Below, in pieces: positions 3,369 through 27,343 of a stretch of 43,022 nucleotides of DNA. The stretch is taken from the IMG/VR virus record IMGVR_UViG_3300045988_043056; one strand, 5' to 3'. Every line of letters starts with the position of its first letter. Position 1 is the stretch's first letter. Position numbers and translations under genes: made by a program. The notes below the pieces were generated by a model. The model was not told where the DNA came from. It saw only the letters and a program-made list of their open reading frames with translations, and searched no databases. The DNA comes from a virus.

Positions 3369-3677
3369 ATGAAAAACAAACTAACCACCGTCTACATTCA
3401 CTTCCGGGATACGCTCGATCTTTCTGCCCTCGGTCAGGCGTTCCCGGAAAGCGCTACCTTCGGCCCCGTTATGGAAAATTCCTGCATCGTCAATTCCTAC
3501 TTGACCTACAAGTCCGTTCTTGACCTCATGTCGCACCATTTCCCAAACGAGCATTATTTCATCTGCGTCGCCGGGCGGCATTACGTTTGTGCCCCTTCTT
3601 CCGCAGGCCGAAGCCCGTCCACGTGTGAGGCCTCCGATGCTTCCGCCCCGCCCACTCTCCGTCATACCGACGGATGA
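3369..3677 (+). CDS. Small hypothetical protein, lysogeny-side strand; the C-terminal ~30 aa are doubtful
   Basis: Consensus promoter and AGGAGGTG RBS. MKNKLTTVYIHFRDTLDLSALGQAFPES...NEHYFICVAGRHYV looks protein-like. The tail APSSAGRSPSTCEASDASAPP is low-complexity and overlaps a convergent ORF. Confidence 0.5.
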   Translation: MKNKLTTVYIHFRDTLDLSALGQAFPESATFGPVMENSCIVNSYLTYKSVLDLMSHHFPNEHYFICVAGRHYVCAPSSAGRSPSTCEASDASAPPTLRHTDG

Positions 3678-4310: not shown

Positions 4311-4339
4311 TTGACTTCCGTTAAAATTGTTGCTATACT
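4311..4339 (+). promoter_or_regulatory. Sigma-70-type promoter of the repressor gene
   Basis: TTGACT (4311-4316), 17 nt, TATACT (4334-4339). AGGAGGTGA and ATG 4365 follow. Confidence 0.7.
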
Positions 4340-4364
4340 CAATATGCAAGGAGGTGAGAACCCC

Positions 4365-4742
4365 ATGAACGAACGTATCAAGCAACTGCGCAAGCATCTC
4401 GGCCTTAATCAAACGGAGTTCGGCGCTCGCATCGGCGTGAAGCAAACAACCATTGCCGGATATGAGCGCGGCGCAAGCACTCCTCTCGACGCAGTTGTTT
4501 CAGCAATCTGCCGCGAGTTCAATGTCAGTGAGCGCTGGCTGCGTGAGGGCGAGGGCGAGATGTTCCTCCCGCAGGACGATGCCGACGAGCTGATGGCCTT
4601 GGCCGGTCGCTTCCTCGGCAGCAATCCGACCGAGACGCAGCTGCGGTTTGCCCGCGCTGTGTTCACCATGACCCCGCAGGAGCTTGAACTTATCACGCGC
4701 AAAGCCCGCGAACTTCTCGGTGAAACAAAAAAAGAGGACTGA
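4365..4742 (+). CDS. CI-like XRE-family repressor
   Basis: I place the start at ATG 4365 behind AGGAGGTGA. MNERIKQLRKHLGLNQTEFGARIGVKQTTIAGYERGASTPLDAVVSAICREFNVSERWLREGEGEMF is an HTH_3 domain, followed by a C-terminal extension. It is divergent from the early promoter. Confidence 0.85.
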   Translation: MNERIKQLRKHLGLNQTEFGARIGVKQTTIAGYERGASTPLDAVVSAICREFNVSERWLREGEGEMFLPQDDADELMALAGRFLGSNPTETQLRFARAVFTMTPQELELITRKARELLGETKKED

Positions 4743-4890: not shown

Positions 4891-4936
4891 CTTTCCGCTC
4901 CTTCCGACATTTTTGTAGTGTTAGCTAAAATATTGC

Positions 4937-4965
4937 TTGACATTTTTCTTCCTACGCGGTAATAT
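4937..4965 (+). promoter_or_regulatory. Sigma-70-type promoter
   Basis: TTGACA (4937-4942), 17 nt, TAATAT (4960-4965). Confidence 0.65.
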
Positions 4966-4979
4966 AAAAGTATCAAATA
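4959..4979. repeat. 21-bp direct repeat GTAATATAAAAGTATCAAATA, copy 1
   Basis: Identical copy at 5488-5508. Copy 1 overlaps the -10 element of promoter 4937-4965. Confidence 0.9.
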
Positions 4980-4998
4980 CGAAACTTTTTTCTTGCAC

Positions 4999-5463
4999 AT
5001 GGTGGTGGTTGCTTTGGATCGTAAAAGGGCGCTTGCTTTCCTTGTGTCCTTCGCTTCCTCAACACTGCTTCTTCTCCTGTTTTTCCTGCTGTTATATGTA
5101 ATTGGGATCGTATATAATTTCTTCTCAGGTCTGTTTTCTCCTAACGATTCTTCAATTCTTTGTGTCTCTTTCCGGTTCTTTTTCAGTCGCAGAGACGGTT
5201 TGCTTCTGTTCCTTCTCTTTATACAGTTTTACAATATTGCTTTCCAGATTTCCGCTGCTATCGTTCGGAAGATTTTAGAATCCCGCTACTTACTGATTGT
5301 TTATACTTTTCGTGTTACAGCCGTTCTCTTTCTCTGCATTGCTATCGCAATGGTCGTACTCAGTTTTTTCGATTTGGCGAATTGGCGGCTATTCCTCCCT
5401 TATGCAATGCTAACCGGTCTTTCTCTTACCATTTCCGCAAGGTCGCTTGGGAAGTCCCATTAA
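4999..5463 (+). CDS. Multi-pass membrane protein, unknown function
   Basis: It is the only long ORF on either strand here. About 4 hydrophobic helices are visible (LAFLVSFASSTLLLLLFFLLLYVIGIV; LLLFLLFIQFYNIAF; VTAVLFLCIAIAMVVLSFF; LFLPYAMLTGLSLTI). The region is visibly T-rich and lower in GC than its surroundings. I see no clear Shine-Dalgarno sequence, which lowers confidence. Confidence 0.55.
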   Translation: MVVVALDRKRALAFLVSFASSTLLLLLFFLLLYVIGIVYNFFSGLFSPNDSSILCVSFRFFFSRRDGLLLFLLFIQFYNIAFQISAAIVRKILESRYLLIVYTFRVTAVLFLCIAIAMVVLSFFDLANWRLFLPYAMLTGLSLTISARSLGKSH

Positions 5464-5487
5464 GACGAGATTCTTATTTGCTCCGTC

Positions 5488-5508
5488 GTAATATAAAAGT
5501 ATCAAATA
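5488..5508. repeat. 21-bp direct repeat, copy 2
   Basis: Identical to 4959-4979. It lies 14 nt upstream of the -35 element of the next promoter. Confidence 0.9.
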
Positions 5509-5522
5509 TGGTATTTTTACTA

Positions 5523-5551
5523 TTGACTTTTCCCTCGCCATGGGTTATACT
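5523..5551 (+). promoter_or_regulatory. Sigma-70-type promoter
   Basis: TTGACT (5523-5528), 17 nt, TATACT (5546-5551). Confidence 0.65.
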
Positions 5552-5591
5552 GAGCCTGCAATGAGATATTCTCTCTCGTTGCCTTTATGCA

Positions 5592-5648
5592 GCCCTTGGC
5601 AGTACGCCGCCCACGAATCCGGGTTTGGCCGATCCCAAGGGCTTTTTT
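5592..5648 (+). terminator. Intrinsic-terminator-like hairpin inside the 5' leader of the NYN gene (attenuator or small-RNA end)
   Basis: GCCCTTGG (5592-5599) pairs with CCAAGGGC (5635-5642) and is followed by TTTTTT (5643-5648). The 35-nt GC-rich interior could fold further. It sits between promoter 5523-5551 and ATG 5677. Confidence 0.55.
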
Positions 5649-5676
5649 ATACCCATAGATAGAAGGGAGCTTTCGT

Positions 5677-6348
5677 ATGTCCGTTACTGCCATTCTCGTG
5701 GACGGTGCATTCTATCGTGCAAGGTTTGCCAAGTCCGGTGAGCATTCCCCGCAGGAAGCTGCCGATGCCTTGGTGCGTTATTGCTCCCGTCACTTGCACG
5801 AGCGCTCCCTAAGCCACACGCTATACCGTATTTTTTATTACGATTGCCCTCCCAGCAGAAAGAAAATATTTCATCCGCTGCAAAACAGAACCTACGATCT
5901 TTCCAAAACACCGCAATATCAGTGGATGTGTGACTTCTTGGATGCCCTCCGCCAGAAGCGGAAGGTCGCGCTTCGGCTTGGCTATCTGGATGAAGTGAAC
6001 GCGGCCTATACGCTCCGCCCCGATGTAGCTCGTGATCTGGTCTTGAAAAAAAGATCGCTTGATTCTCTCACGGATTCTGATTTTATCCCGTCGTTCAAGC
6101 AAAAAGGCGTAGATATGCGCATCGGTATGGACATTGCTTCCCTTGCATACAAGCGTCAGGTTTCTCAGATCGTTTTAATTGCCGGGGATGCGGACTTCGT
6201 TCCCGCTTCCAAACTTGCACGCCGCGAAGGTATCGATTTTGTTCTCGATCCTCTCGGTCATCCAATCAAAAACGATCTCTTTGAGCATATCGACGGAAAG
6301 CGTTCCTGCGGCGATCCTTATCTGGAATCCTCCAGAAAAGGCAGATAG
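5677..6348 (+). CDS. NYN-domain (LabA-like) predicted ribonuclease
   Basis: TAILVDGAFYRARF at the N-terminus, then KQKGVDMRIGMDIASLAYKRQVSQIVLIAGDADFVPASKLARREGIDFVL. These are the conserved acidic motifs of PF01936-type NYN domains. The RBS is AGAAGGGAG. Confidence 0.9.
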   Translation: MSVTAILVDGAFYRARFAKSGEHSPQEAADALVRYCSRHLHERSLSHTLYRIFYYDCPPSRKKIFHPLQNRTYDLSKTPQYQWMCDFLDALRQKRKVALRLGYLDEVNAAYTLRPDVARDLVLKKRSLDSLTDSDFIPSFKQKGVDMRIGMDIASLAYKRQVSQIVLIAGDADFVPASKLARREGIDFVLDPLGHPIKNDLFEHIDGKRSCGDPYLESSRKGR

Positions 6349-6349
6349 C

Positions 6350-6529
6350 TCAGTTAACCAGTCTCGGTTTTTCCTCCCGCGTCCCTGTTCCCACGTCGGC
6401 CACGCAGGAGAACAGCAGCGGTGCACCCTCGATATAGTCCACCGAGAAGCTGTGCAGCCGTTTTAATTCCGCCCCGTCTATAATCACGCGGACCTTTCCG
6501 TTTTCGGAAATAATGTGGATAGATTGCAT
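6350..6529 (-). CDS. Small hypothetical protein (59 aa), convergent with the NYN gene, below the ORF-track cutoff
   Basis: Hand translation MQSIHIISENGKVRVIIDGAELKRLHSFSVDYIEGAPLLFSCVADVGTGTREEKPRLVN. The RBS is GGGGAGGG. Its stop is 1 nt from the NYN stop. Confidence 0.45.
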   Translation of the reverse strand: MQSIHIISENGKVRVIIDGAELKRLHSFSVDYIEGAPLLFSCVADVGTGTREEKPRLVN

Positions 6530-6568
6530 GGTGCGCCCTCCCCAATATTGTAGTTATTCTGTTTTGAC

Positions 6569-6603
6569 GAGCCGTGCCGGTTGTACCAGAACCGACACGG
6601 CTC
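6569..6603. promoter_or_regulatory. 14-bp-arm inverted repeat (operator- or structure-like)
   Basis: GAGCCGTGCCGGTT (6569-6582), a 7-nt loop, then AACCGACACGGCTC (6590-6603), with one mismatch. No U-run follows on either strand, so it is not a canonical terminator. Confidence 0.5.
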
Positions 6604-6695
6604 TATCGCAGATACCCGCAAATCACTTCGTCTGCTGCACCTCTATCGTAGCAGGAATGCCGGAGTTTGTCCACGCGCAGTTCTGCTTTTCCCGC

Positions 6696-6728
6696 GCAGC
6701 CGCTGCAAAAACAGCCTGCAGCCGCTGC
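6696..6728. promoter_or_regulatory. Two copies of the near-palindromic 11-mer GCAGCCGCTGC, 22 bp apart
   Basis: Copies at 6696-6706 and 6718-6728, upstream of the HTH-membrane gene. Confidence 0.4.
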
Positions 6729-6762
6729 GAATTCCGCACAAGCACGAAAGGAGCCGTGAGAA

Positions 6763-7347
6763 ATGACCGAATACCAGAAGCTGTACCCCAAATTTGAATC
6801 CTACCCCGAGGCCGTCCGTCAGGCAAAGCGTCTCAAGGGCCTCACCATCGACGCGCTGGTCGAATCGGCCGGCGTTTCCTATTCCTCCGTATCCCGCCTC
6901 TGCGACGGCACGCAGCTCGATCCCAAGCTCTATAATTCCGTTGCCCTCTGCAAAGTCCTCGGTCTTTCCATGGACGAGATTTTCGGTCTATCCGCGTCCG
7001 AGGCCAGCGTCGAGGAATTGCAGTCGAAGCTCCACGCCGCCGAGTTGGAAAACGCCCACCTTGCCGAGGAAACCAAGCGTCTGCACGAGGTCAACCGCCT
7101 CCGCGCCGAGCAGCTTGCCGCCCGCGCCCCCGTTATCTATATTCTTCTCTTTGCCTGCGCGCTCCAGTCCTGCGCCTTGATCTTTTATCTGTTCGTCGAT
7201 GCGCAGATCAAGGATGCCGGCCTCATCCGCTTCGGCGATGTCGGCCTTGTCGCGTGGCTTCTGATCTTCCTTGTCCTCTCCGCAACTTCCGCCTGCGTCT
7301 GGGCGACCATGCGCTTCGCCCGTAAATTCAGCAAAAAGGAGCGCTGA
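6763..7347 (+). CDS. Membrane-anchored XRE-type HTH protein (HTH, then coiled coil, then two TM helices)
   Basis: LKGLTIDALVESAGVSYSSVSRLCDGTQ is the HTH. ELQSKLHAAELENAHLAEETKRLHEVNRLRAEQLAA is the coiled coil. VIYILLFACALQSCALIFYLFV and VGLVAWLLIFLVLSATSACVWA are the TM helices. The stop lies 2 nt before the integrase ATG. Confidence 0.8.
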   Translation: MTEYQKLYPKFESYPEAVRQAKRLKGLTIDALVESAGVSYSSVSRLCDGTQLDPKLYNSVALCKVLGLSMDEIFGLSASEASVEELQSKLHAAELENAHLAEETKRLHEVNRLRAEQLAARAPVIYILLFACALQSCALIFYLFVDAQIKDAGLIRFGDVGLVAWLLIFLVLSATSACVWATMRFARKFSKKER

Positions 7348-7349
7348 CC

Positions 7350-8399
7350 ATGTACATCCCCGATCCGAAAGAAACCCCCTCCGGCTGGCGCATCCAGCTC
7401 CGCATCAACGGCCAGTCTATCCCCGTGCTGGCCGACACGCCCAAGGAGTGCAAGCGTCAGGCCGCACTTATCAAGGCGCAGGCGCAGGCCGCCGGAAAGC
7501 CCGTCAAAAAATGCGACCTCACCCTCTCTCAGGCCATTGATGCCTATATCGCCGAGCGCAGTAACACGCTTTCCCCCTCTACCGTTCGCGGCTATCGCAT
7601 CATCCAGCGCACACGCTTCCAGTCCACCATGCCGCGCGTACTCTCCCGCATCAGCCCCTCCGAATGGCGCGGCATCGTCAATGACGAGCTGGGCATCGTC
7701 TCCCGAAAGACCGTCAAAAACGCATGGGCTTTCATCAAGTCCGTTCTATCTGCACAGGGCATCGACGTTGACAATGCAGTCAAGGTCTCGCAGCCCCGAA
7801 AAAAGCGCGACGCGAACTGGCTGGAGCCGGACGAAATCAAGAAATTTGTCGCAGCCGCCGCAGACGATCCGCTCTGCGTTCCCATGCTTCTGGCCCTTAT
7901 GTCCATGCGTATCTCCGAGATCGATGCGCTCCGCTGGGAGAATATCAACCCCCACGCCGATTTTATCCACACCACCGGTGCACGCATCCGCAATGAGAAT
8001 AACGAGTATGTCCTCAAAGCCGAGCAAAAGAATCTGGAATCCGACCGAAACGTTCCCCTGCTGATTCCCGAGCTTCGCGCGGCCATCCTCCGTGACTGGA
8101 AGCCGGAGGGCAAGGTCCTTTCCGTTTGCCAGACAACCCTTCGCTGCGCGGTCGAGCGCACCTGTGCGCGTGCCGGTGTTCGGCGCGTCACCGTTCACCA
8201 GCTCCGTCACAGCTTCGCCTCCCTTTCCGCGCATCTCCGCATCCCCGCCGAAATTTCCATGGAGATCGGCGGCTGGAACAATGACAAAATCATGAAAGAG
8301 ATTTACACCCACATTGCCCGCTCCGACATTGAGCGCTATAAAAACGAGATGTGGAACTTCTACAACAGTACACCCGCCGCACCGCCCGAAAACGCATAA
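7350..8399 (+). CDS. int: Tyrosine integrase (phage integrase family)
   Basis: An N-terminal SAM-like region is followed by LALMSMRISEIDALRWENI (box I Arg), HQLRHSFASL (HxxR) and GGWNNDKIMKEIYTHI (catalytic Tyr). Confidence 0.95.
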   Translation: MYIPDPKETPSGWRIQLRINGQSIPVLADTPKECKRQAALIKAQAQAAGKPVKKCDLTLSQAIDAYIAERSNTLSPSTVRGYRIIQRTRFQSTMPRVLSRISPSEWRGIVNDELGIVSRKTVKNAWAFIKSVLSAQGIDVDNAVKVSQPRKKRDANWLEPDEIKKFVAAAADDPLCVPMLLALMSMRISEIDALRWENINPHADFIHTTGARIRNENNEYVLKAEQKNLESDRNVPLLIPELRAAILRDWKPEGKVLSVCQTTLRCAVERTCARAGVRRVTVHQLRHSFASLSAHLRIPAEISMEIGGWNNDKIMKEIYTHIARSDIERYKNEMWNFYNSTPAAPPENA

Positions 8400-8420
8400 G
8401 CATTTTCATAAGCATTTACT
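8395..8420. repeat. CATAAGCAT x2, plus copy 1 of the 16-bp direct repeat TTCATAAGCATTTACT
   Basis: CATAAGCAT at 8395-8403 and 8407-8415. The 16-mer at 8405-8420 recurs at 8636-8651. These are candidate integrase arm-type sites. Confidence 0.6.
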
Positions 8421-8516
8421 GTTCCCGAACCCGATATTTTCTTTCCCGTTCCCTGTTATTTCGCTCCCATATCTGGGACTTTCAAAGCCCCGTTTCCCCT
8501 TGCAAATACAAGAAAA

Positions 8517-8543
8517 GCCCTGCAAACGTACTGTTTGCAGGGC
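8517..8543 (+). terminator. Hairpin downstream of int
   Basis: GCCCTGCAAAC, GTACT, GTTTGCAGGGC forms a perfect 11-bp stem. TTCACTATTT follows. Confidence 0.5.
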
Positions 8544-8552
8544 TTCACTATT

Positions 8553-8582
8553 TGGTGCCGGTGGCGGGGGTCGAACCCCACC
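8553..8582 (-). other. tRNA/tmRNA 3'-end-like fragment: putative attP core
   Basis: In minus sense: GGTGGGGTTCGACCCCCGCCACCGGCACCA. This contains the T-loop TTCGACC, the T-stem 3' arm CCCGC, the acceptor arm CACCGGC, the discriminator A and CCA. The matching 5' T-stem arm and the rest of a tRNA are absent, as expected for an attP core rather than a gene. Confidence 0.55.
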
Positions 8583-8600
8583 TATACGCTCTTAAAATCC

Positions 8601-8651
8601 AGTGTTTTCAATGCTTTTATGAAACCGCAAGCAATTTCATAAGCATTTACT
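8601..8651. repeat. Inverted copy (ATGCTTTTATGAAA) plus copy 2 of the 16-bp direct repeat
   Basis: 8601-8614 is an imperfect reverse complement of 8635-8646. The 16-mer at 8636-8651 is identical to 8405-8420. Together these flank the tRNA-like core. Confidence 0.6.
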
Positions 8652-11375: not shown

Positions 11376-11419
11376 GGGTCACTTAGGGGTCATTTAGGGG
11401 TCACTTGCGGGTCAACTCC
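11376..11419. repeat. 11-bp tandem repeat x4 (GGGTCAYTTRS)
   Basis: GGGTCACTTAG, GGGTCATTTAG, GGGTCACTTGC, GGGTCAACTCC. The last unit overlaps the stop codon (11412-11414) of the giant ORF. Confidence 0.9.
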
Positions 11420-14400
11420 ACGGCATCATCCACCAGTCATAGCTTTTATACTTCTGGCCCATGATCCAGTCCTTCTGTTCTGCGGTCAGGCTCAGGCTGT
11501 CGATCAGCTCGATGACCTTTTCTCTCTTGCTGCCGGAAATAAACTCTCCGTCCTCGTCCCTGTCGGATTCCAGCTCCGCTTGAGCCAGCCAGAACTTTGT
11601 GTACTCCTTTGCTGGGATTCCTGCCTCGTGAGCCTCCTTGAACTTCTCCGCCGTTCCATCGGAATAGATTGCACACAGCGCTTTATAGGCTTCATTTTCG
11701 GAAAGTCCCGCCTGCGCAACAGCTCTGGCCTGATATGCCTCCGAAAAGTTCTTTCCATCAGCTTTTGCGGCCTTGCGGGCAATTTCCTCTATCTTTATTG
11801 CGCTGTTTTTCCCAACGCCCGCTGCGGTCATTTTGTTGTAGAAGCTCGCGGATTGCGGCACGAGCGCCTCGTTGATCGCCTCTCGGTTCTTCCCGGAATA
11901 CTTCTTTCCGTCCAACCAGCTTGCAAACTCCGCCGCCCATTCGCTTTCGGTCTTTCCCGCTTTCAGCTCGCCGCGCTTGTCGAGGATTTCGGAAATATTT
12001 TTCCACTTCATCCCGGCGTCGAGCAGCTTGTCAATCGCGTCGTTTTTCCCGCTTTCGACCATCGCGCTGTAGATTCTCATTCTCTGCCCGTCGGTCAGAC
12101 CCTCCTGCGCTGCCAGCTCGGCGCGTGCCTTTTTGCGGTGCTCCTCCTTCTGCTGCAAGCGCTTTGCCTTTTCCTCTTCGCTCTCGTCGTCCTTTGGCTC
12201 CGGTATGTCGGAGTAATTCATTGCATCGTCCATCCGCATCATCAGGCCGTAGAGCGCATACCCGTTCACGCCCTCGTCCCGCAGCTCTTTCCAGAGTTTC
12301 GTCTGGTCGGCATTCAGCCCGTAGCTGTCCCCGGCATAATACCGATTCGCCTCCGGTGTCGCGTTTGTCCCGAACAGCACCGTCCGAATATCGTTCCACA
12401 CATTGTCCGTGTCCAGCGCGTAGAGCAGCCGTTCGTTATCTCCGTATCCCTTGGTTTTTCCTCCCTGCGCGATTGCCTTAATGCCGTACCCGGTTTTCTT
12501 GGCCTGTCTGCCGCCCGGAACCAGCTCTGCAAGGAACTCCAGCCCCTTCTCCAGCACTTCCTGTCCATTGGCGCTTTTGCCGTTTCCGGGAAACAGCGCA
12601 TCATAGAAGTTTTTCCCGGTTCCGAAGATGTTCGGGAACGGCATTGACCGGTCGCCCACACCCAGCAGTCCGGAAAGATTCGAGGCAAACGGGATCTCGT
12701 TCATCAGGTTGTAGCCCGTGTCCTTGATCGCCGCCGACGTGTCAAATCCTTCCTTCGGCTTCTGCACGTCGAAGATTTCCGAGCCGACCACCTTGTTGAT
12801 AAGGTTCTTGATGTAGTCATTCGTCGGCAGCCCCTTGCCGGATGCAAAGAAGTTTGCCGTCAGTCCGGCAATGTCCAGCGGTGCAGGCGTGCCGCCGTAA
12901 AGCTCATCCGTCAGCCGGTTCAGCACGAACGCCGCAATCAGGTACCCGAAGATCGTCCGCAGCAGCATTCGCGCCGCGCTTTTCTTTCCGTGCTCTCTGG
13001 CCTCCCGCTTTATCTCCAGCGGCATGTCCTGCGTGACAAACTCCACCGTGTTCAGCGGCTCGATCTGGAACACGTTCAGCATTTGCACCACAACGCCCTT
13101 GCTGTGGAACTTCAGCGGCTTTGCCCCCTTCGTCCGGTCTCCCATCAAGGCTCTGCCGTACCAGTCTGCAAACCGCATGGCCTCCTCGTGGCTCTTCCCG
13201 TTGCGGATCGCGTCCCAATAGGCCGCACGTGTCGCGATGGTCGAGAGCATCGAATCCATAAATTCCGCCGGTGCAAACATGCCGGAAATGAACTTATCCG
13301 TCCCGCTCTGCACCAGATAGTCTATTCCCTTCTTTCCGGTCAGGAAGTCGATCTCTTTTCGGAATTCCCCCAGCTTTCCCGTGCAGAACTCCTGTGTCGC
13401 TTTCAGGATCGCCCGCTGGCTTCTCGTGGCCTGAAGCATCGCAAGCTGGGCGCTCTGGTTCAGCACCGAGGAGAGGTTTCCTGCAACATTGGCCTTTGCA
13501 AACGCGCCGACCAGTTTGTTTCCGATGTTCAGCCATTCGCGCCCGCCGCCGTACTCCGTGCCTCTGTCGCCGCCGAACTGCTTCCCGGCCAGAATGTCGC
13601 CGTAGTTTTTCAGCCATACGACCAGCGGAGAATATCGCGTCTTGTTTGTTTCTTCCCCAACCAGCTCGGAGATCAGCCGGTCGAACACCTGCATCATTTC
13701 CGCATCGGATAGGTCGTAGTCGTCTGCCCCGATCTGCCCCATTTCCTGCAAGTATTCGATCTTTTCCTCTGCGTCCGAGCTTCGGCTCATGTCGATTGCC
13801 TTTTGCAGATCGTCCACGAAGTTTCCGCGCAGGCCCTTGCGCAGATAGCTTTCCGCCGCTCGTACCTTCTGGATGTCGTCTGTGTGGAACAGAATGTCGC
13901 TGAGATACTGCACATAGCTCTGGAATGCCTCCTCGATGTCATAGGCCGTCTTGTCGGTCTTACGTTCCAGCAGGAACGGGTTCCATCTTCTCTGCGGCCG
14001 GAATCCCTCCGTCCGTCCGGAGATCTCCGCGGGCAGTGTCGTCACGGTCTCGTTCAGGCCCAGCACTTCAAGCGCCTTGCTCATTAGGTTGAACTTTTCC
14101 GCCAGAGGCATATGCGGCGTATACCCTTGGATCCTGCCGATGGGCTGCATTCCGTGCGCCACGAGGAAATCGTTGATTGCCTCAAAATACAGGTCGAATT
14201 TTTTCCGGTATTCCTGCATCGCGTTCTCGCATTTCTTCTTGTCGATGCCCTCGGTGTCCTTTCCGTTGATCCACTGCGCATATTTCTCAACGATTTTCGC
14301 TTCCTCGCTGTTCAGCGCAAATTCTATGGTCTCGTTGGAAATGCTTTCGCCCTTGGCCACCTTCTTGGCCGCGTCCTTCAGGATGTCGCCTCTGTCGCTG

Positions 14401-17400
14401 CGCTCCGCCTTTTCCACATATCCTTCCACGTCCAGCATCATGTGCACATAGGCGCGTTCGGTCTCGTTCAGGCGTGACTTCTTCCCGCTGCTGTCTGTAA
14501 ATTCCTTCACGTCGTCAAACTGCTGATTCGTCCAGCGGTAGCTCTCCGCCGTGTTTCGGATGACCGGCGCGAACAGATAGTTGTAGATCTCCATGCCCCG
14601 TTCTTCTCCGAAGATATTCACCATCGACCGCAGCGCCGTCCGGTAGTTCAGCACCAGCAGCTTTTCCGCCTTGAACAGCTCCGGGTTTGCCATGATCTCG
14701 TTTTCCGTCGGGAAAAGCTCCATCATCTTGTAGAACAGGCCGTCGCGGATCTCGCTCTTGCGCACTTGGATCAGATCCTCTCCGGTCATGCGCTCGTTCA
14801 GGTACAGGGCAGAAAGCTGCGAGACAACCTCCGGCCGGCACTTGTCCGGCAGCCTGTAATACTCCTGCTTCCCCTGCGCGATTTTTTTCGCTGCGCGGAT
14901 CTCCTGTTTTGTCGCCTCCATCCGCTGGATGGTCTTGTCGATCTGCCATTTCACGCTCCTGCGCGTCTCCGCGCCCTTGCGCATGGTTTCCACCTGACCG
15001 TAGTCCGCGATTCCGCCGTCGATCTTCACGCCCGCCTTTTCCAGTGCCGGAGAACCCTTGAAGTTCTCTTTTGCAATGCCTTCCGGATGCACGCCCGGAA
15101 TTTGCTGCCCATAGGTTTTCTTGGCCGCCTCCAGTCTCTCAAGCGCTTCTTTGGGGCTGATGCTCGTTTTCGGCGCGGGATCTTTCGTCATGGTCGCTTT
15201 CCATGTGCCGTCTGCATTGTTGGTCAGTGCCCACTTGGTTCCGGTCATCGCCTGCAAGAGGCTCAGTGCCTCGCCCGGCTGCAAGGTCGTGAATCTGGAC
15301 TGCATCGGTCTGTCCTTGCCATACGGCAGCTTCGGCTCCGTTGTCCCGAAGCTCTCAAGATACGCCTTTCGGATTCCCTCTATGCGTTCCGCCTTTTTCT
15401 GCTCGTAGGCTTCCTGTTCCTCCAGTGCACTCTCCCCGCGCTGCTTTTCGATCTCCTGCGCGGCCTGTCTTGATTTCTCCGCACGTTCCTCCGCCACCGG
15501 CCGCAGATCGTTTGTCTCTCTGCCCTCCGTCTGGCCGTCGTACCACTCGTAGAATGCCCCGAGATCCTCTGCGTCCGCCGCGTCCTCCAGCTTCTCCGGC
15601 GGCATACTCGCAAGCAGAGCCGCCGTCTCCTGCACGCTCGGCTGATATTTCGGCTCCACCGCCGTCAGCAGCTTCGTCTCCATGTCCTTCACGCTGGAAA
15701 GGCCGGTCTCCTTGTTCGTGAACAGCACCGTGAGCATGCCCTTCTTCGTGCTCTTGTCCAGCACAAGGCCGTAGTTGCCCATGTCCGCCGCCTTGACCCA
15801 CGTCCGCAGGGGATACACCTGTTTCCCGTTCAGGAAGGGGAAGCCGCGCTTCTGCGCCGCCGCCTCCGAGATCGTCCACGGCTCCACAACGCCCTCGGCC
15901 TTTTTCGTCGGCTGCACGCCGTCGGCCTCTCGGAGGATTGATTCCAGCCGCTCGTCCGTTTCCGTTCTTGCCCGCGCTTCTCTCGCCTCCGCGCCTGCCT
16001 GCTTTTCGTACCGGTTCAGCAGCTTTTCAAATTCCTGCCTCTGGTATTCCAGCTGCTCCTCCCGCTTCAGTCCGAAGCGCTTTTCGTTTTCCTCCATGGC
16101 CTGCCGGTAGGGCAGCTTCGTGTCCATGCCCTTGTCGGCCATGTCCTCCATGCGCCGCAGCATTTCCGTCATGTCATAGGTGCCCGGGAATGCCCCCGGG
16201 TACTGCTCCGCCAGCTCCTTGTAAAGCTGGTCGATGCCCTGCTTGCCCTCGTCCTCCACAAAGTAGAACTTGTGCCGTCCCATGGCGCGCTTCTTAAAGC
16301 TGTTCCAGTCGTCCCCGAATTCCGTCCTGACCCACTCCGGCACGAACACCTTCTGCCCGTAGATCGTGTCGCGGATTTCTCTGTAATAGTCGTCCGCTGG
16401 CATCGTCTCCGTCCCAAGGTTCATCACCGCCTCAAACAGGTCGTCCTTTTCCGCCTTCAGCAGCTTCACGCCCTGCTGCATTTCCAGCATCGGCGTTTCC
16501 AGCAGCCCGTTTAATTCCTTGCTGTCATAGCTCTGGATGTTGAAAAGCCTCCGCATGCCGCTTGTCAGGTCGCGCTTGTATCGCTCCTGCGCCTTTTCCT
16601 TCTCCTGCTCCAGCTTTTCTTGCGCGGCGGTCAGCTTGTTTTCCGCCCGCTGCACCTTTTCCTCCGGCGAGAGAGAAAACCGCTTCTTCGGCTCCAGCAG
16701 CTTTTCGGCATCTGCCTCGGCCTCCTGCCGCGCCTGCTCGTTTCCGGCCCTGTATTCCACCACGTTCAGGCCGTTCATTTTCAGCCTTTCCACAAGCCAC
16801 CAGTCCACGCTCGACGGAATCACCGCTGCCATGTTCTCAAGGTGCGCGTTGTTGTTCCGCGCATCCTCGTTCTTCACGATCAGCGACACGTCGCCCGCGC
16901 CCTCGGTGTTCGTCAGCAGCTCCTGCACCGGAATCCGCGCCGACCCGTACAGCACCTCAAGATCATCCTCGTTCAGATTCCGAATGGTCGTGAGATTTTC
17001 GTTGCCTGTTTCTTTGGTCTCCTGCAAGAATTCAGAAAATTGCTTTCCTGTTATGTTGACATTCTTCCCTCGGTATGTTATACTACCAATGTAGCCGCTA
17101 GGTGGAAGGGAACCGGGACGTAGTTGCAAGCCCGTGGAACGAAGGAGCCTGGCGGCTCTTTTTTTATCCACAAACATTGCCTCGCTGTTTTTCAGAAAAC
17201 CTGCCGGGTTTCCTGTTTTTACATACGCGCTGACGACCTTCTGCATGTCCTCAATCAGAAGATTTCCTTCCACTGGCCTTAAATCCAGCACAGCCAGCAT
17301 GGGTGCGCCATTTGTATTCTTCATGCTGCCAAACACGACCACGCGGCTGTTCCCTCTTTTGGAATCCGATTGTCTACTTTTCAGTACCAGCACCGGATCG

Positions 17401-20400
17401 TTCAGCACGCTCGGTATCTTCTTGATTTCCTCTAGCGACATTTCCGGATGCTGCTTGAGAATTGTCTCGATTTTCTCGCTGCGCATATATACATCGCTCT
17501 CAATCGCTCCAAGTCCTTGCAGCACTTCTCCGGTACTCCCCAGAATGAAATCTGTCTTTCTTCTTCCGTCTGCGTCCCACTGAGTTATTGCCTCTGCAAA
17601 CCCTTCCGGATTATCAACGGAAAGCTGTACTTTCGATGTTCCTTCTCCGTCCTCCGTCAGCAGCGCTCTGTTCCATCCAAGGTCTGGCATTTTGTTTTTC
17701 CGTTCCTCTGCGGTCAGGTTCCGGCGGCTGGCCGTTTCTCTCGCCTCGATCTCTCCTGCGGAATTGATGTACTGCCCCAGATAGACCTCGCCGGGGTTTT
17801 CCATCTGCCGTTTCAGATCGATCAGCTTTCCGAACCACTCGTTCGGATAGAGCTTTTCATAGAGTCTGTCGTGCTCTGCGTCCATCCGGTCGTATTTCTC
17901 AGTGTCACCCGGCTTTTCGGAGTAGAACAGGCGCTCCAGCTCCCCGTCGATCTCCTGATAGCGGATATAGTCGTTCTGTTCTTCCTTTGTCAGGCCGTTC
18001 AGAATGTCGCTGTACTCCCGCTGCAAGCGCTCCTGCAACCTGTCTCCGCTTTCATAGTCGCGCCGCGCCCAGTATTCCGGGCTTGTCCCGCCCTGGAAGC
18101 CCTCGTATTTCTGGATGATGTGCTGAATCTCGTGCAGCAGCGTCTCCGGCCCCTTGCCGAACAGGCTGTCGGAAAGAACAATGGCATTGCTTCTCTTGTC
18201 AAACTTTCCCTTCACGCCGGGATCCAGCTTTTCAAAGCGCAGCGTCGTGTGCCGCAGCAGAGGATACGCCTCATAGAGTTCGTCGTGCTTCAGGAAATCC
18301 TGAAGCTCGTATTTTTTCTCCCATACCCTGTCGCTGTATTCCTCCTGAAGCGCTTCCATTTCCGCTTCCTCTGCCTCTGTCAGCGGTTCTCCGCCCTTTT
18401 CAAAGCTGTCGCCCCATTTGTCTGTCAGTTCTTCCAGTCTGCGGTATCTCGGCTCGCCCAGCAGCCTTGCGTCCCCGTTCGGTCGGAATTCCGCCTTGCT
18501 GTCGTCCACCTCAAACCGCCACTGGCCGTCCGCACCGCGAATCCATCCGGTTTTCCGCCAGATTTCCTCTCGGCTTGCGCCGTCCTCCTCCATGGCCTCC
18601 GCAAGCGCAAGGTTTTTGGAGCTGGCCGTCTTGGCCTTCGGGCCTGCCATACTCGCCCTTTTGCCGCCCTCTCGGGCGGTTTTTTCGTTTCCGTCGCTGT
18701 CCTGCGTCCGGCGCACGGCCTGTGAGACCTCTGCCGTCGGTGCGTTGCTCTCCCGCTGGCTTTGCATGCCGGCCGCATGCGTCCGCATTGCGTCGATCAG
18801 CTTCTTGAAGCTCCGATTGGCAAAGCGGTTCAGCCCCGCATAGGCGTCGGCCAGAATTTCCTCATAGACCGCCGTGTCGCTGTCATATGCCCCTCGGTAC
18901 GCCTTCATGTACTGCTCGACGATCTCGGTGTATTCCTCCGCCGTCATGTTTTCGCTCACGCTTTCCAGCGCCGTGACAAGGTCGATCTCCGCCGCGTGCA
19001 CCTTGGCGTGGAAAAGCTCATGCTCCATCAGCACCTCCGGCTCGTAGATGCTCGAAACGCTCACGAAAATACGCCCGCTTTCCGCATCAAACATCGCGTC
19101 CGTGTTGTGGTACTCTCCGTCCTCGCCCTTGATGGACATCGTGCCCACCACGAAGGTCGTTTTCACGCCCTGCTCCTTCGCCTCGCGCTGTGCCTGCTTC
19201 ATGGCCTGCGTGTACTTCCGCACCGGCACGATCCCGACCATCACGTCAGGGTCTCCGTCTGCGGTCAGTTTGTCCATGCCGGTGTCCAGCACGGTGCCCT
19301 TGAAGCGCTCTACTCTTTCGTTGAGCTTCTGCCGGCGAAGATTTTCGCTTTCATTTCCTCCAGCTTCGCCCGTTCCTCCTCTGTCAGCGGCGATTCGTGA
19401 TCCGCTTTCGACCACGCCGCCAGTCTGTCCCTCGGCACCCACACGCTCATTCCGCTCTTGGTTTTCATTAACACTCTGGGATTGCTCATTGCTCATTCCT
19501 CCTTCGGTTTCCTGCGCCGCCGGCGCATTGATTTCCTCTGCCTGTTCGACCGTCGCTGCCGCGCTCTGGTCGGTCTCCTGCGCCGCCTGCGGCGTTTCCT
19601 GCGCGGTTTGCTCTGCGGTCGGTATGTTTTCCTGTGCTGCGCTTTCTGCGGCTCTCTGCGCCCTCTCTGCGGCTCTCGCGCTCTTTTCCGCGTCCAGCAC
19701 GTCCAGATAGCTCTGCGCAGATTCCGCCACGAAGATATCCGTCGCATCCGTGCTGCCGCGCAGGGCCTCTATGGTCGCCCGCTGCGTGATGATCTGAATA
19801 TCCAGCGCACGGTCTGTCATCAGCGCCGCATTGCTCTGCTGCTCTGCGCGGATGATGTTCTGCATCTCCACGTCCACAAAGCCGCCGTTCGCCTGCGGCG
19901 GCGTGTACCGCTCGAAGCTCTCCGAGATATTCTGTGCGCTTTCCAGACGGTCTGCCAGCGTGTTGAACTCCCGCACGATGGTGTTCCACTCGCCCTTGGC
20001 TTTCTTGATCTGGCTCTCGCTCCATCCGTTGAAGCGCATCAGGTTTTCGTCGCCTGCATAGTATTGCGCCGTGTACTGCGCCATGGTGCCGTAGAGCACG
20101 TCCAGATTGCTCTGCGCCTGCTTGCCGAAGCGCGTGATCACCTTCGACTGCACATAGCTTTTCGCTCTGGCCGTCAGGTCCACAATGTCCTCCGGTGCGC
20201 TCATGACCATGGAAAGCAGCACGCCCACGGTAAACTCGTCCACCAGCTCTTTTGCCGTCAGGTCGGTTTCGCCCGTCAGCGCGTAGTCCAGCGCCGCGCC
20301 CGCAACGGCCGAGGCCACCTCCTCCATGCCTTCGCCGATGCGGTCGAACACCTTGCTCGATACGATCTTCCGGATGGTCTCATTGTCTGTCAGGTCGGTG

Positions 20401-25831: not shown

Positions 25832-27343
25832 TTAAAATGGGTTTCCCCAAAGTCTGATCAGCTCGGCGCGCTCTGCGTCGCCCGCTGCGTAATAGTCCTC
25901 CCATTGGTCGTCGTGCCACCGGGCTTTCCTTCCCTCCGGCTCTGCAATGCGCGTCTCCTGCTGGTCCCGGATGTAGTAGGTAATTGCAAGCGCCATCACG
26001 CAGTCGTCGTGCGCGCCCTCTATCGCCTCCGGCCGTCCTTTTTCGTTTCTGGCAAAGGTCAGCATTTCCTGCAGCGTGTCCTCGTCGTCCACCAGTTCCG
26101 GATGCTCTCGCATAATGCCCACCAGCCCCGCGATGATCGTCGGCCTTGTCAGCCGGTCGGTGCGGAAGCCGTAGGACATCTTCACTTCCTTCGTGATTCT
26201 GTCCTCCACCTCTCGCAGATAGAGCTTCGGGTATTTCAGCCGCTGCAGCTCCTTTGTCGGGTGCGTCGAGAAGTTGATCTCTATCCCGATAAGCGCGGTG
26301 TTGTAGTACATTCCGAGGCAGTAGAGATTCCGCGCAAACAGATCCTCGTCCGTCCTCGTTCGGTACTTTGCCACGAGCCGCCCCGTGGCATTGTCTATCA
26401 CCTGCGCCACGAACCAGTCGCAGCCTTCGCCCGCCGTGTCCGCGCCGATCACATACGGGTGTCCCTTTTCCGGCCTCCTGTAAATGATCGTCTCGCCCGC
26501 TGCGTCCTCGCGGAATTTCCAGCCCGTCACGGCAAGCTCGTTGTAGGTGTAGTCGAACTCCCCGCGCGTCTCCGGCTTTCCGAGGTTCTGCAGCTTCTCC
26601 ATCAGGATTTCGCGGTTGAAGATCGTCGCCGAGAGCACGCCCCACTGTCCAAGGCAGTACACCTGATAGTAGTAGGGGTCTGTCTCCTTCATGGCCTCCA
26701 GCGTCAGCCTGTCCTCCTCCGGCAGGAACCGGTTGTCCGTGTATACGCTCTTGTGCGTCAGCACGCGCGGGTCTTTCCGGTCAAAGAAGCGCTTTTTCAG
26801 CCAGTGCGTGATGCTGATGGGGTTAAACGTCAGGATGATCTGCTTGTAGTATCTCGTGTTGCCGCGCAGTCGGATGTCCAACTGGTTAAAATCCTGTTCC
26901 TCGATCTCCGTGGCTTCCTCGATCCAGATTCCCGTGATGTTGTAGATGGACTTCAGCTTTTCCGCGTCGTCCAGCCCCGCAAAGATGATCTCCGAGCCGT
27001 TTTTGAATTGCAGATACATGTCCGAGCCTTTCCCCTTCGGGATTTTCTCGATCATCTCCGGATACAGCTCCTGCGCCTGCCGCTTGAGCTGGTCAAAGCA
27101 GCTTTCCCGCAGGGTCTTTGCGACCTTCCGCACCACCAGAAAGCGGTGCTTTTCCTCCGTCGCGCAGCGGTCTATGATCTTCTGACCGGCGAAAATGCTC
27201 TTTCCCGAGCCGCCGCCGCCCATCAGCACCAGGTGCTTGTGCTTGTCAAAAAGCAGCGGCAGGAACTTCTCGTTCATGATCTCCCGCATTTTCTTGAACC
27301 ACAGCATTGCCCGATATTGCTCTTCTGTGATCTTCGCCTTCAT
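25832..27343 (-). CDS. terL: Terminase large subunit
   Basis: I place the start at ATG 27341-27343 (ATGA overlap with the upstream stop). MKAKITEEQYRAMLWFKKMREIMNEKFLPLLFDKHKHLVLMGGGGSGKS contains the Walker A motif. A nuclease-half pattern follows (GADTAGEG...DWFV...DDCVMALA). The ORF-track N-terminal extension has no RBS. Confidence 0.9.
   Translation of the reverse strand: MKAKITEEQYRAMLWFKKMREIMNEKFLPLLFDKHKHLVLMGGGGSGKSIFAGQKIIDRCATEEKHRFLVVRKVAKTLRESCFDQLKRQAQELYPEMIEKIPKGKGSDMYLQFKNGSEIIFAGLDDAEKLKSIYNITGIWIEEATEIEEQDFNQLDIRLRGNTRYYKQIILTFNPISITHWLKKRFFDRKDPRVLTHKSVYTDNRFLPEEDRLTLEAMKETDPYYYQVYCLGQWGVLSATIFNREILMEKLQNLGKPETRGEFDYTYNELAVTGWKFREDAAGETIIYRRPEKGHPYVIGADTAGEGCDWFVAQVIDNATGRLVAKYRTRTDEDLFARNLYCLGMYYNTALIGIEINFSTHPTKELQRLKYPKLYLREVEDRITKEVKMSYGFRTDRLTRPTIIAGLVGIMREHPELVDDEDTLQEMLTFARNEKGRPEAIEGAHDDCVMALAITYYIRDQQETRIAEPEGRKARWHDDQWEDYYAAGDAERAELIRLWGNPF

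Follow-up and report, generated by a model that had tools for sequence, protein, structure and literature searches.

In the 43,022-nt sequence of a temperate phage (IMG/VR record IMGVR_UViG_3300045988_043056; this whole stretch of DNA is called the window below), a gene for an NYN (LabA-like, PIN-like) nuclease lies behind a promoter and a structured leader RNA (Table 1). An initial annotation, made from the sequence alone, had placed a consensus promoter and a leader stem with a structured 35-nt interior and a U6 tract in front of this gene, and had proposed that the leader, or a convergent open reading frame (ORF) of 59 amino acids (aa), controls a tightly gated RNase. The promoter is present where it was placed, and the leader stem folds as predicted: GCCCTTGG (5592–5599) pairs with CCAAGGGC (5635–5642) around the 35-nt interior, and T6 follows. 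A separate hairpin, P0, begins a few nucleotides past the expected transcription start. Folded alone, the hairpin 5591–5643 reaches −25.9 kcal/mol (z = −2.36); the whole leader gives a z of only −1.45, which is unremarkable, and folding energy alone would therefore not settle the question. With a 9-bp stem containing six G-C pairs and U6 directly after it, the hairpin has the form of an intrinsic terminator; a simple terminator scan misses it because the structured 35-nt interior, which is atypically long for a terminator, exceeds the loop limit of the scan. A 40-aa ORF across the leader (5540–5662) was considered as a leader peptide and rejected, because its ATG falls within the −10 region, ahead of where transcription probably starts.

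The product of the gene matches Pfam PF01936 (NYN) with 35.1 bits against a cut-off of 24.2 bits (E = 2.3e-8), which bears out the name it had been given, and homologs from E. coli, Burkholderia and Streptococcus phages likewise lie above the gathering score of this family. Residues 2–211 align with positions 2–220 of the 246-position profile phrog_5783 (E = 5.1e-78). A word-indexed search returned at least 8000 NYN relatives, the best 120 of which share 64–100% identity, and an exhaustive search gave 185 clusters at 50% identity (E ≤ 1e-30); the subfamily is ~225 aa long and has no OST-HTH domain. Residues D9, D146, D152, D171 and D173, invariant in 26 homologs of 63–100% identity, would by analogy be the catalytic acidic residues, and their invariance makes it likely that the protein is an active metal-dependent nuclease. 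An AlphaFold model (predicted local distance difference test score, pLDDT, 84) has its best Protein Data Bank (PDB) fold match in 2qip (E = 1.1e-5, probability 1.0, TM 0.45/0.58), with no other convincing match; a PDB sequence search gave no match and an NCBIfam search only domain-level noise. In a 2017 classification of the PIN-like superfamily, the representatives of the PF01936 NYN groups were without a nuclease-function study (PMC5499597).

Table 1. Features of the NYN locus, the lysogeny block and further genes of the window.
Feature	Position	Strand	Detail
σ70-type promoter	5523–5551	plus	TTGACT-17-TATACT; 10/12 consensus matches
Leader 5′ hairpin P0	5558–5582	plus	GCAATGAGA...TCTCGTTGC; 9-bp stem in minimum-free-energy (MFE) and centroid folds
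TEG147-like RNA motif	5579–5653	plus	full model match (linker, P1, S-turn loop, P2, U tail)
P1 5′ arm	5591–5599	plus	AGCCCTTGG
Internal loop, 5′ strand	5600–5604	plus	CAGTA (A-GUA, sarcin-ricin/S-turn-like)
P2	5605–5631	plus	stems CGCC/GGC(C)G and GCCC/GGGT; loop ACGAATCC with invariant AU
Internal loop, 3′ strand	5631–5634	plus	GATC (consensus GAA position)
P1 3′ arm	5635–5643	plus	CCAAGGGCT
U6 tract	5643–5648	plus	intrinsic-terminator-like tail
Ribosome binding site (RBS)	5663–5669	plus	AAGGGAG, 7 nt 5′ of ATG
NYN (LabA-like, PIN-like) nuclease gene	5677–6348	plus	223 aa
59-aa gene	6350–6529	minus	phage backbone, not part of the module
CI-like helix-turn-helix (HTH) repressor	4311–4742	plus	
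Small membrane ORF	4993–5463	plus	156 aa
HTH protein with membrane C-terminus	6763–7347	plus	
Tyrosine integrase	7350–8399	plus	
MuF/LPD23 polyvalent protein	11412–22691	minus	3759 aa
Large terminase	25832–27505	minus	

Conservation of the leader hairpin upstream of NYN genes

We fetched 160 loci encoding NYN relatives from viral and genome collections. Their upstream layout is near-uniform, with a promoter, a variable 5′ hairpin, a UUAAU-like linker and a conserved hairpin of consensus GCCCUUGG-cAGUAnGCC-uCCC-AnnAUAA-GGGa-nnnGCCGAAc-CCAAGGGC-UUUUU. A hairpin at the P0 position occurs in most homologous leaders (for example ACAACG...CGTTGT and TGTAAC...GTTACA) and is missing from the Staphylococcus aureus-type copies. 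RNAalifold, applied to a MAFFT alignment of 68 non-redundant leaders, gives 14 pairs with compensatory changes in all 14. In 97 of the 100 loci searched, a covariance model, R1, built from this 68-leader alignment with no staphylococcal sequences included, has its match just before the NYN start codon; it matches almost nowhere else in 760 kb, and each locus has a single motif copy. For the window copy the score is 64.3 bits (E = 4.9e-15).

Covariation across homologous loci, which the initial annotation had named as a check, lies far above that of shuffles. Among 96 distinct sequences, 96.2% of the cells hold standard pairs and double changes occur in 13 of the 14 pairs. Compensatory cells number 273 against 62 in shuffles (0/500 shuffles reach 273), and the covariation score is 0.628, against 0.253 for shuffles and no more than 0.164 after a shift of the partners by 1–3 columns; these 96-sequence counts were taken from an alignment fitted to the model, although the RNAalifold result on the 68 leaders is independent of it. 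Compensatory changes occur in each of the eight P1 pairs modelled, and C37-G51 is paired in 95 of the 96 sequences. The unpaired positions are conserved as well: A 0.78, G 0.79, U 0.89 and A 0.98 in the 5′ columns of the internal loop, G 0.76 and A 0.92 on its 3′ side, A43 0.98 and U44 1.00 in the terminal loop, with U75 and U76 conserved to at least 95%. Together, the recurrence of the hairpin with covariation upstream of NYN homologs, at ~150 loci, indicates that it is a genuine structured RNA with a terminator-like end and not a chance stem.

The elements around the hairpin are equally regular. Of 122 distinct loci, 112 have a σ70-type promoter (at least 9/12 consensus matches) no more than 130 nt upstream of the hairpin, with 31–46 nt between the end of the −10 element and P1; a primary transcript running to the U tract would therefore measure ~85–95 nt. 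At least five T are found in the 8 nt after P1 in 92 of 111 distinct homologs, and the start codon follows the hairpin end at a strikingly uniform distance (quartiles 22–28 nt). A hairpin serving simply as a terminator or insulator, to shield the NYN cassette from transcription upstream of it, would also present a GC-rich stem and a U tract, and the sibling contig L001 does have a second promoter just upstream. We regard this as very improbable, since the hairpin lies downstream of the module's own promoter in ~90% of loci, and since its interior and loop nucleotides are conserved across phyla far beyond the needs of termination; a plain terminator would not need near-invariant unpaired nucleotides.

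The motif also precedes NYN in cultured phages, with R1 scores of 67.9 bits in Streptococcus phage Javan85, 60.7 bits in Dorea phage DO134P1 and 38.8 bits in the P2-like Burkholderia phage phiE202, where P2b is CGC/GCG. In E. coli, lambdoid and Stx2a-converting phages encode an NYN homolog of 285 aa and 39% identity, which is present in 275 of 5426 complete E. coli genomes, and upstream of it a hairpin, AAGCCCAGCC...GGCTCTGGGCT, with T7, lies 11 nt before the ATG; R1 has no match at this homolog. In Escherichia phage ev099 (L161) the region concerned is 3420–3500. RefSeq labels the E. coli homolog as hypothetical or as a PIN domain protein, with no non-coding RNA annotation there. Covariation at the E. 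coli loci was unusable, the genomes being at least 99% identical.

The initial annotation had also considered that NYN expression is gated by conditional read-through. In that case the hairpin would be a riboswitch or a factor-dependent attenuator, with read-through switched by a small molecule or by an antitermination factor of the host or the phage. The promoter-proximal terminator shape would suit such a device, the conserved unpaired nucleotides could form a pocket, and the analogous hairpin of lambdoid phages is part of an operon under antitermination control. Against this, no segment complementary to a P1 arm, which could serve as antiterminator, was seen upstream or downstream in the leader or its homologs (judged by eye and from MFE folds only), so that a classical attenuator or riboswitch is not favoured. 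Moreover, the element is a single one of 52 nt without a multi-helix junction, no Rfam riboswitch matches it, and a nuclease would be an unusual riboswitch-controlled gene. We thus consider a conditional terminator improbable.

Relation to Staphylococcus aureus Teg147 and orphan copies

An Rfam scan found no match in the window leader, even at E ≤ 10 on a 200-nt slice (5500–5700); RF03535 (TEG147) surfaced only in scans of homologous loci. Of eight such loci, L005 scores 55.1 bits and the L111, L148 and L105 leaders ~30 bits; the gathering threshold is 56.1 bits, which the window copy does not reach. R1, for its part, scores the S. aureus-type copies (L165–L168) at 52.9–60.1 bits (E = 2e-14 to 2.5e-12). 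With the Rfam model scoring L005 and R1 scoring the S. aureus-type copies, the relationship is reciprocal, and by these scores the window leader RNA is a divergent relative of RF03535 TEG147, a family that Rfam types as cis-regulatory. Alignment of L005 to the Rfam consensus and the 96-leader consensus reveal a shared structure and shared conserved nucleotides. Both have a UUAAU-type 5′ linker and a P1 of 8–9 bp, with A-GUA on the 5′ side and a CCC/GGG stem whose loop contains AUA; GAA precedes the 3′ arm of P1, and a U tail ends the element. The window copy departs from this by an additional 5′ hairpin, by a C bulged out of P2 and by GAU in place of GAA; furthermore, it precedes an intact gene, whereas the S. 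aureus RNA is an orphan beside a decayed NYN remnant.

Teg147 (synonyms srn_0960 and sRNA85) is a 60-nt S. aureus RNA of genomic island origin and high GC content that is listed as a bona fide stand-alone small RNA (sRNA) in strain HG003, and for which we found no assigned function in the literature searched (PMC5826253, PMC3053349, PMC7779021). In HG003 its transcript spans 386294–386353 (PMC5826253). A JAR3D survey reports a sarcin-ricin motif match with an acceptance rate of 100 for RF03535 (PMC13085918), and this matches the A-GUA/GA loop predicted for the NYN leaders. The S. aureus-type copies, which lie on IMG/VR contigs, have a promoter, TTGAAA-17-TAATAT, directly before the hairpin; it is placed for a transcript start right at the motif, which accounts for the 60-nt length of the RNA in the annotation. 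The 3′ side of the hairpin reads AAAGGA-N8-ATA GAT AAA GTA GCC ATT CTA ATA TAT GGA GTA TTT ATC AGC TGA and translates as 'IDKVAILIYGVFIS*'. Set beside the NYN N-terminus consensus, KTAILVDGGFY, this segment is the remnant of a decayed NYN N-terminus, and Teg147 hence seems to be a leader orphaned by the loss of its NYN gene. The earlier suggestion that the window promoter mainly makes a ~90-nt RNA fits its stand-alone 60-nt homolog (PMC5826253).

Orphan copies are found outside S. aureus too. When IMG/VR was searched for the motif first, with a loose pattern, 36 matches came up, five of which lack P1 and are chance hits inside genes. The other ~31 are true motifs: an intact NYN gene follows within 120 nt in 22 cases and a frameshifted one in a single case, two motifs are truncated by contig ends and six have no NYN. 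Orphan copies thus exist, and they persist with promoters. The orphan motif loci are L075, L187, L192, L194 (two copies), L181, L182, L205 and L199/L203. The second motif copy in L075 is a convergent orphan on the minus strand (4995–5067). Two motif copies precede non-NYN genes, a 288-aa ORF in one case and a 155-aa P-loop ORF in the other. One contig (L199/L203) has the motif cut within the 3′ arm of P1 at each of its ends, possibly the sign of a boundary of recombination or packaging.

Such copies raise the question of whether the RNA is an independent, trans-acting phage sRNA with targets of its own, NYN being simply the next gene, reached by leaky read-through. The listing of Teg147 as a bona fide stand-alone sRNA, the orphan copies and the two copies before non-NYN genes would agree with this. 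The linkage to NYN is, however, very tight and ancient, extending across Bacillota, Treponema, Fibrobacter and Burkholderia phage, and the conserved nucleotides lie in structured loops and not in a long single-stranded seed. We therefore give an independent sRNA little likelihood.

The lysogeny block and its variable cargo slot

The three ORFs on each side of NYN were clustered at 147 distinct loci. XRE-type repressors lie upstream on the same strand at 54 of them, tyrosine integrases directly downstream at 47 and large serine recombinases directly downstream at 28, with ImmA-like peptidases at some. These repressors, peptidases and recombinases are all that recurs: no conserved protein partner of NYN was found in the 147 loci, and on this clustering the RNA is the only constant companion of the nuclease gene. 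In phage ev099 the homolog lies between cI and N, the interval that holds rexAB in lambda; in phiE202 it lies beside int, next to a toxin-antitoxin (TA) pair; and in Javan85 it lies between the repressor and int. Genomic position together with the module's own promoter mark it as lysogeny-side cargo. Indeed, location in a lysogeny module or a moron slot proves to be a general feature of the family, in keeping with the expression from the lysogeny strand noted initially for the window. This position suggests lysogen-expressed exclusion or defence cargo, with a putative role in abortive infection or exclusion.

The window itself, at 43 kb, is nearly a whole temperate phage genome and is near-identical to IMG/VR UViG_3300045988_029530. 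Its plus-strand lysogeny block consists of the repressor, the membrane ORF, NYN, the HTH-membrane gene and the integrase. The minus-strand ORF of 3759 codons encodes one giant polyvalent phage protein, with MuF C-terminal and LPD23 domains. Past the integrase, the minus strand holds the 3′ part of a tRNA (T-arm, acceptor strand and ACCA; 8551–8590), and no whole tRNA was found. A tRNA 3′ part without the remaining gene points to this region as the probable attP, and to the window as an excised phage form and not the integrated prophage of the initial framing. Near attP we note a perfect 13-bp hairpin (8515–8545) and a 23-nt direct repeat, AAGCA(T/A)TTTCATAAGCATTTACT, at 8398–8420 and 8629–8651, which may represent integrase arm sites.

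Upstream of the NYN promoter, a 529-bp cassette (region 4949–5518) bears the small membrane ORF and is flanked by a perfect 21-nt direct repeat, GTAATATAAAAGTATCAAATA (4958–4978 and 5488–5508). The sibling contig L001 has no such cassette, and its promoter equivalent to 4937–4965 lies directly 5′ of the NYN promoter, giving tandem promoters. Downstream, a divergent control region (6530–6762) separates the 59-aa gene from the HTH-membrane gene. It contains a 14-bp inverted repeat, GAGCCGTGCCGGTT/AACCGACACGGCTC (~6571–6605), and a minus-strand promoter-like site (6673–6645), elements that may form the operator of a second switch beside the integrase.

The NYN stop codon (TAG, 6346–6348) lies 1 nt from the stop of the convergent 59-aa ORF, with no terminator-like site between the two, just as had been described. 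The 59-aa ORF has a good RBS and homologs in 66 clusters, all 57–59 aa long apart from one 85-aa outlier, and by this conservation it is a real gene. Since the stops are 1 nt apart without a terminator, the 3′ ends of the two transcripts probably overlap here, which would be in line with the earlier idea that the small gene is the control partner of NYN, through antisense overlap or through its protein. We find this scarcely credible, and lack of co-occurrence already largely refutes it. The 59-aa protein is present in only 4 of the 160 NYN loci, on which ground it was rejected as a partner, and in three of these four (L008, L009 and L086) its gene lies 2.2 kb from NYN, past the recombinase. 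Its homologs are always divergent from the HTH-membrane gene and an integrase or recombinase, which are its constant neighbours, and in sibling phages they converge on unrelated 207-aa or 266–268-aa proteins. This distribution argues that the terminator-less convergent junction is the border between the phage backbone and a variable cargo slot and not a regulatory pairing.

In the siblings L169–L176, the slot equivalent to 5500–6349 holds proteins of 207 aa, 266–268 aa or 299–304 aa, for which no Pfam or PADLOC match was found. The slot, between the repressor and the backbone of the 59-aa gene, HTH gene and integrase, looks like a variable moron or defence hotspot. An AcrIC5-family ORF lies near it in L169–L172.

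A possible RNA-controlled nuclease and its relation to known systems

Our preferred reading, which we hold tentatively, is an RNA-controlled nuclease with TA-like behaviour. The stretch 5523–6348 would then be a self-contained, two-part cargo module of a temperate phage. A constitutive σ70-type promoter would start a transcript whose first ~90 nt comprise the 5′ hairpin and the TEG147-type hairpin, the latter with P1, an S-turn-like A-GUA/GA loop and a CCC/GGG stem with an NNNAUAA loop. The U tract would act as an intrinsic terminator, most transcripts stopping there to give a free small RNA, and a minority would read through into NYN, whose RBS and start codon lie 22–28 nt further on. The promoter, the conserved RNA with its terminator-like U tract, the RBS, the nuclease and the short transcript in S. 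aureus are directly visible in, or strongly implied by, the sequences and annotations compared. Beyond this, the RNA would be a specific ligand of NYN, possibly a mimic of its RNA substrate, and RNA in excess would keep the nuclease scarce and inactive. Loss of the RNA supply, for example when an infecting phage shuts transcription, would free the nuclease to cut host or phage RNA.

Several observations lead us to propose that the RNA is a ligand of NYN. The two parts co-occur across phyla without any other constant partner. The conserved loop nucleotides would form an S-turn-type platform, and S-turn loops are typical protein-binding platforms. Orphan RNAs with promoters outlast the loss of the gene. 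Finally, the layout matches that of type III TA loci, in which the terminator sets an excess of RNA over toxin mRNA.

A number of points weigh against this reading. Binding and inhibition of NYN by the RNA, like toxicity of NYN, are at present proposals. The fitted alignment behind the 96-sequence covariation counts has been mentioned. Four T or fewer are found in the tail in 19 of 111 homologs, and termination may thus not be universal. The E. coli hairpin with its T7 is similar in shape, but its interior is unrelated. Orphan RNAs could be relics of cassette exchange. NYN identity is 55–80% across families, unusually high for a defence gene, and a search of PADLOC-DB 2.0 gave no significant full-length match to a system component, just weak partial hits to the NYN model at the domain level (E = 6e-4 across 48 residues) and to HEC-09 (E = 0.03). 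Furthermore, the constant spacing between hairpin and RBS fits plain translational autoregulation equally well.

In such purely cis-acting autoregulation, NYN would bind its own leader hairpin and block the ribosome site, or cleave the leader, so that nuclease levels stay low; the free short RNA would be a by-product and TA-like behaviour would be absent. Apart from the spacing to the start codon, the protein-binding character of S-turn loops, the cis-regulatory label of TEG147 in Rfam and the lack of a conserved partner protein in the neighbour clustering all accord with this. However, orphan copies with an intact promoter and structure but no NYN occur in S. aureus and in several phage contigs, and a strong U-tailed terminator right after the operator is unneeded for translational repression. 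We judge purely cis-acting autoregulation unlikely, though likelier than the other alternatives to the preferred reading.

A more specific form of the RNA-controlled nuclease concerns what the RNA might imitate. VapC toxins reportedly cut the anticodon loop of tRNA-fMet and, in 23S rRNA, the sarcin-ricin loop. In the leader, a loop of the sarcin-ricin type occurs together with a stem of three G-C pairs capped by xxNAUAA, which makes mimicry of VapC-type substrates an attractive idea. The TEG147-type RNA could on this basis be a substrate-mimicking antitoxin of an NYN toxin, founding a new type III-like or abortive-infection class of lysogen-expressed cargo, a proposal that we consider doubtful. 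Its scope would take in temperate phages of Bacillota, Spirochaetes, Fibrobacteres and Proteobacteria, with a structural analogue in the E. coli O157 Stx2a phages, an extension we regard with similar scepticism. Likewise, it is conceivable, if somewhat doubtful, that S. aureus Teg147 and the other orphan copies act as stand-alone 'anti-NYN' immunity RNAs.

If the preferred reading of an RNA-controlled nuclease is right, it would provide a function and a genomic origin for Teg147, an S. aureus sRNA catalogued since 2010, and a first functional handle on the large phage NYN/LabA-like family (phrog_5783, with thousands of members), relatives of which occur in the Stx2a-converting phages of E. coli O157:H7. 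Direct control of the nuclease by the RNA would extend protein-RNA TA logic from ToxN-type to PIN-like nucleases, in a compact pair of ~90 nt and 223 aa, and the RNA, with covariation as strong as this, offers structural and binding studies a well-defined target. The initial annotation knew of no described system of this layout. Both halves turn out to be catalogued already, the RNA as Rfam TEG147 and the protein as phrog_5783, but a paper linking the two was not found, nor, in the literature searched, one linking NYN with an sRNA, a leader, type III TA or anti-phage defence for this module. The obligate pairing at ~150 phage loci, the strong covariation, the orphan-leader origin of Teg147 and the RNA-plus-nuclease module appear to be undescribed in the searchable literature. 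The RNA half of the earlier proposal is thus strengthened, its 59-aa half rejected, and the finding is more general than first described.

Among known systems, LabA/COG1432 NYN proteins (2qip) and phrog_5783 are the relatives of the nuclease, through the Pfam NYN score above threshold, the best fold match and the full-length profile match; 2qip is very distant from the phage subfamily (13% identity, TM 0.45–0.58). PIN-domain VapC toxins share the PIN-like metal-dependent nuclease fold, and the S-turn (sarcin-ricin-type) loop and the three-G-C stem with its xxNAUAA loop resemble VapC substrates by eye. The leader stem, CCC on the 5′ side and GGG on the 3′ side, has the opposite polarity to that of tRNA-fMet, and VapC is neutralised by protein antitoxins (type II), unlike the RNA proposed here. 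With lambda rexAB and other lysogen-expressed morons the module shares its position, the E. coli lambdoid and Stx2a homolog lying directly after cI and before N, and the Bacillota phages, with NYN between repressor and int, can be likened to carriers of rexAB-type exclusion morons; rexAB has no sequence relation to NYN, for which exclusion is a putative role.

The closest parallel is provided by type III TA systems (ToxIN, CptIN and TenpIN), with which the module shares a promoter, a structured RNA, a Rho-independent terminator, an endoribonuclease-type gene and carriage on mobile elements. In the window the promoter at 5523–5551 is followed by the hairpin and U6 up to 5648 and by the ATG at 5677, and the family as a whole shows this layout; from it one would expect more RNA than toxin mRNA, function being predicted where layout is observed. 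Two differences set the module apart. Type III toxins are ToxN/AbiQ-like, whereas the candidate toxin of the window is NYN/PIN-like (Pfam finds NYN only, and no PADLOC type III or Abi model gave a hit). Type III antitoxins are tandem repeats, whereas the window RNA is single-copy; a tandem-repeat antitoxin was rejected, as 4900–5700 contains no tandem repeat. By sequence, membership in type III TA proper fails on these two counts, and what we propose is that the phage module works like a type III TA system, not that it is one.

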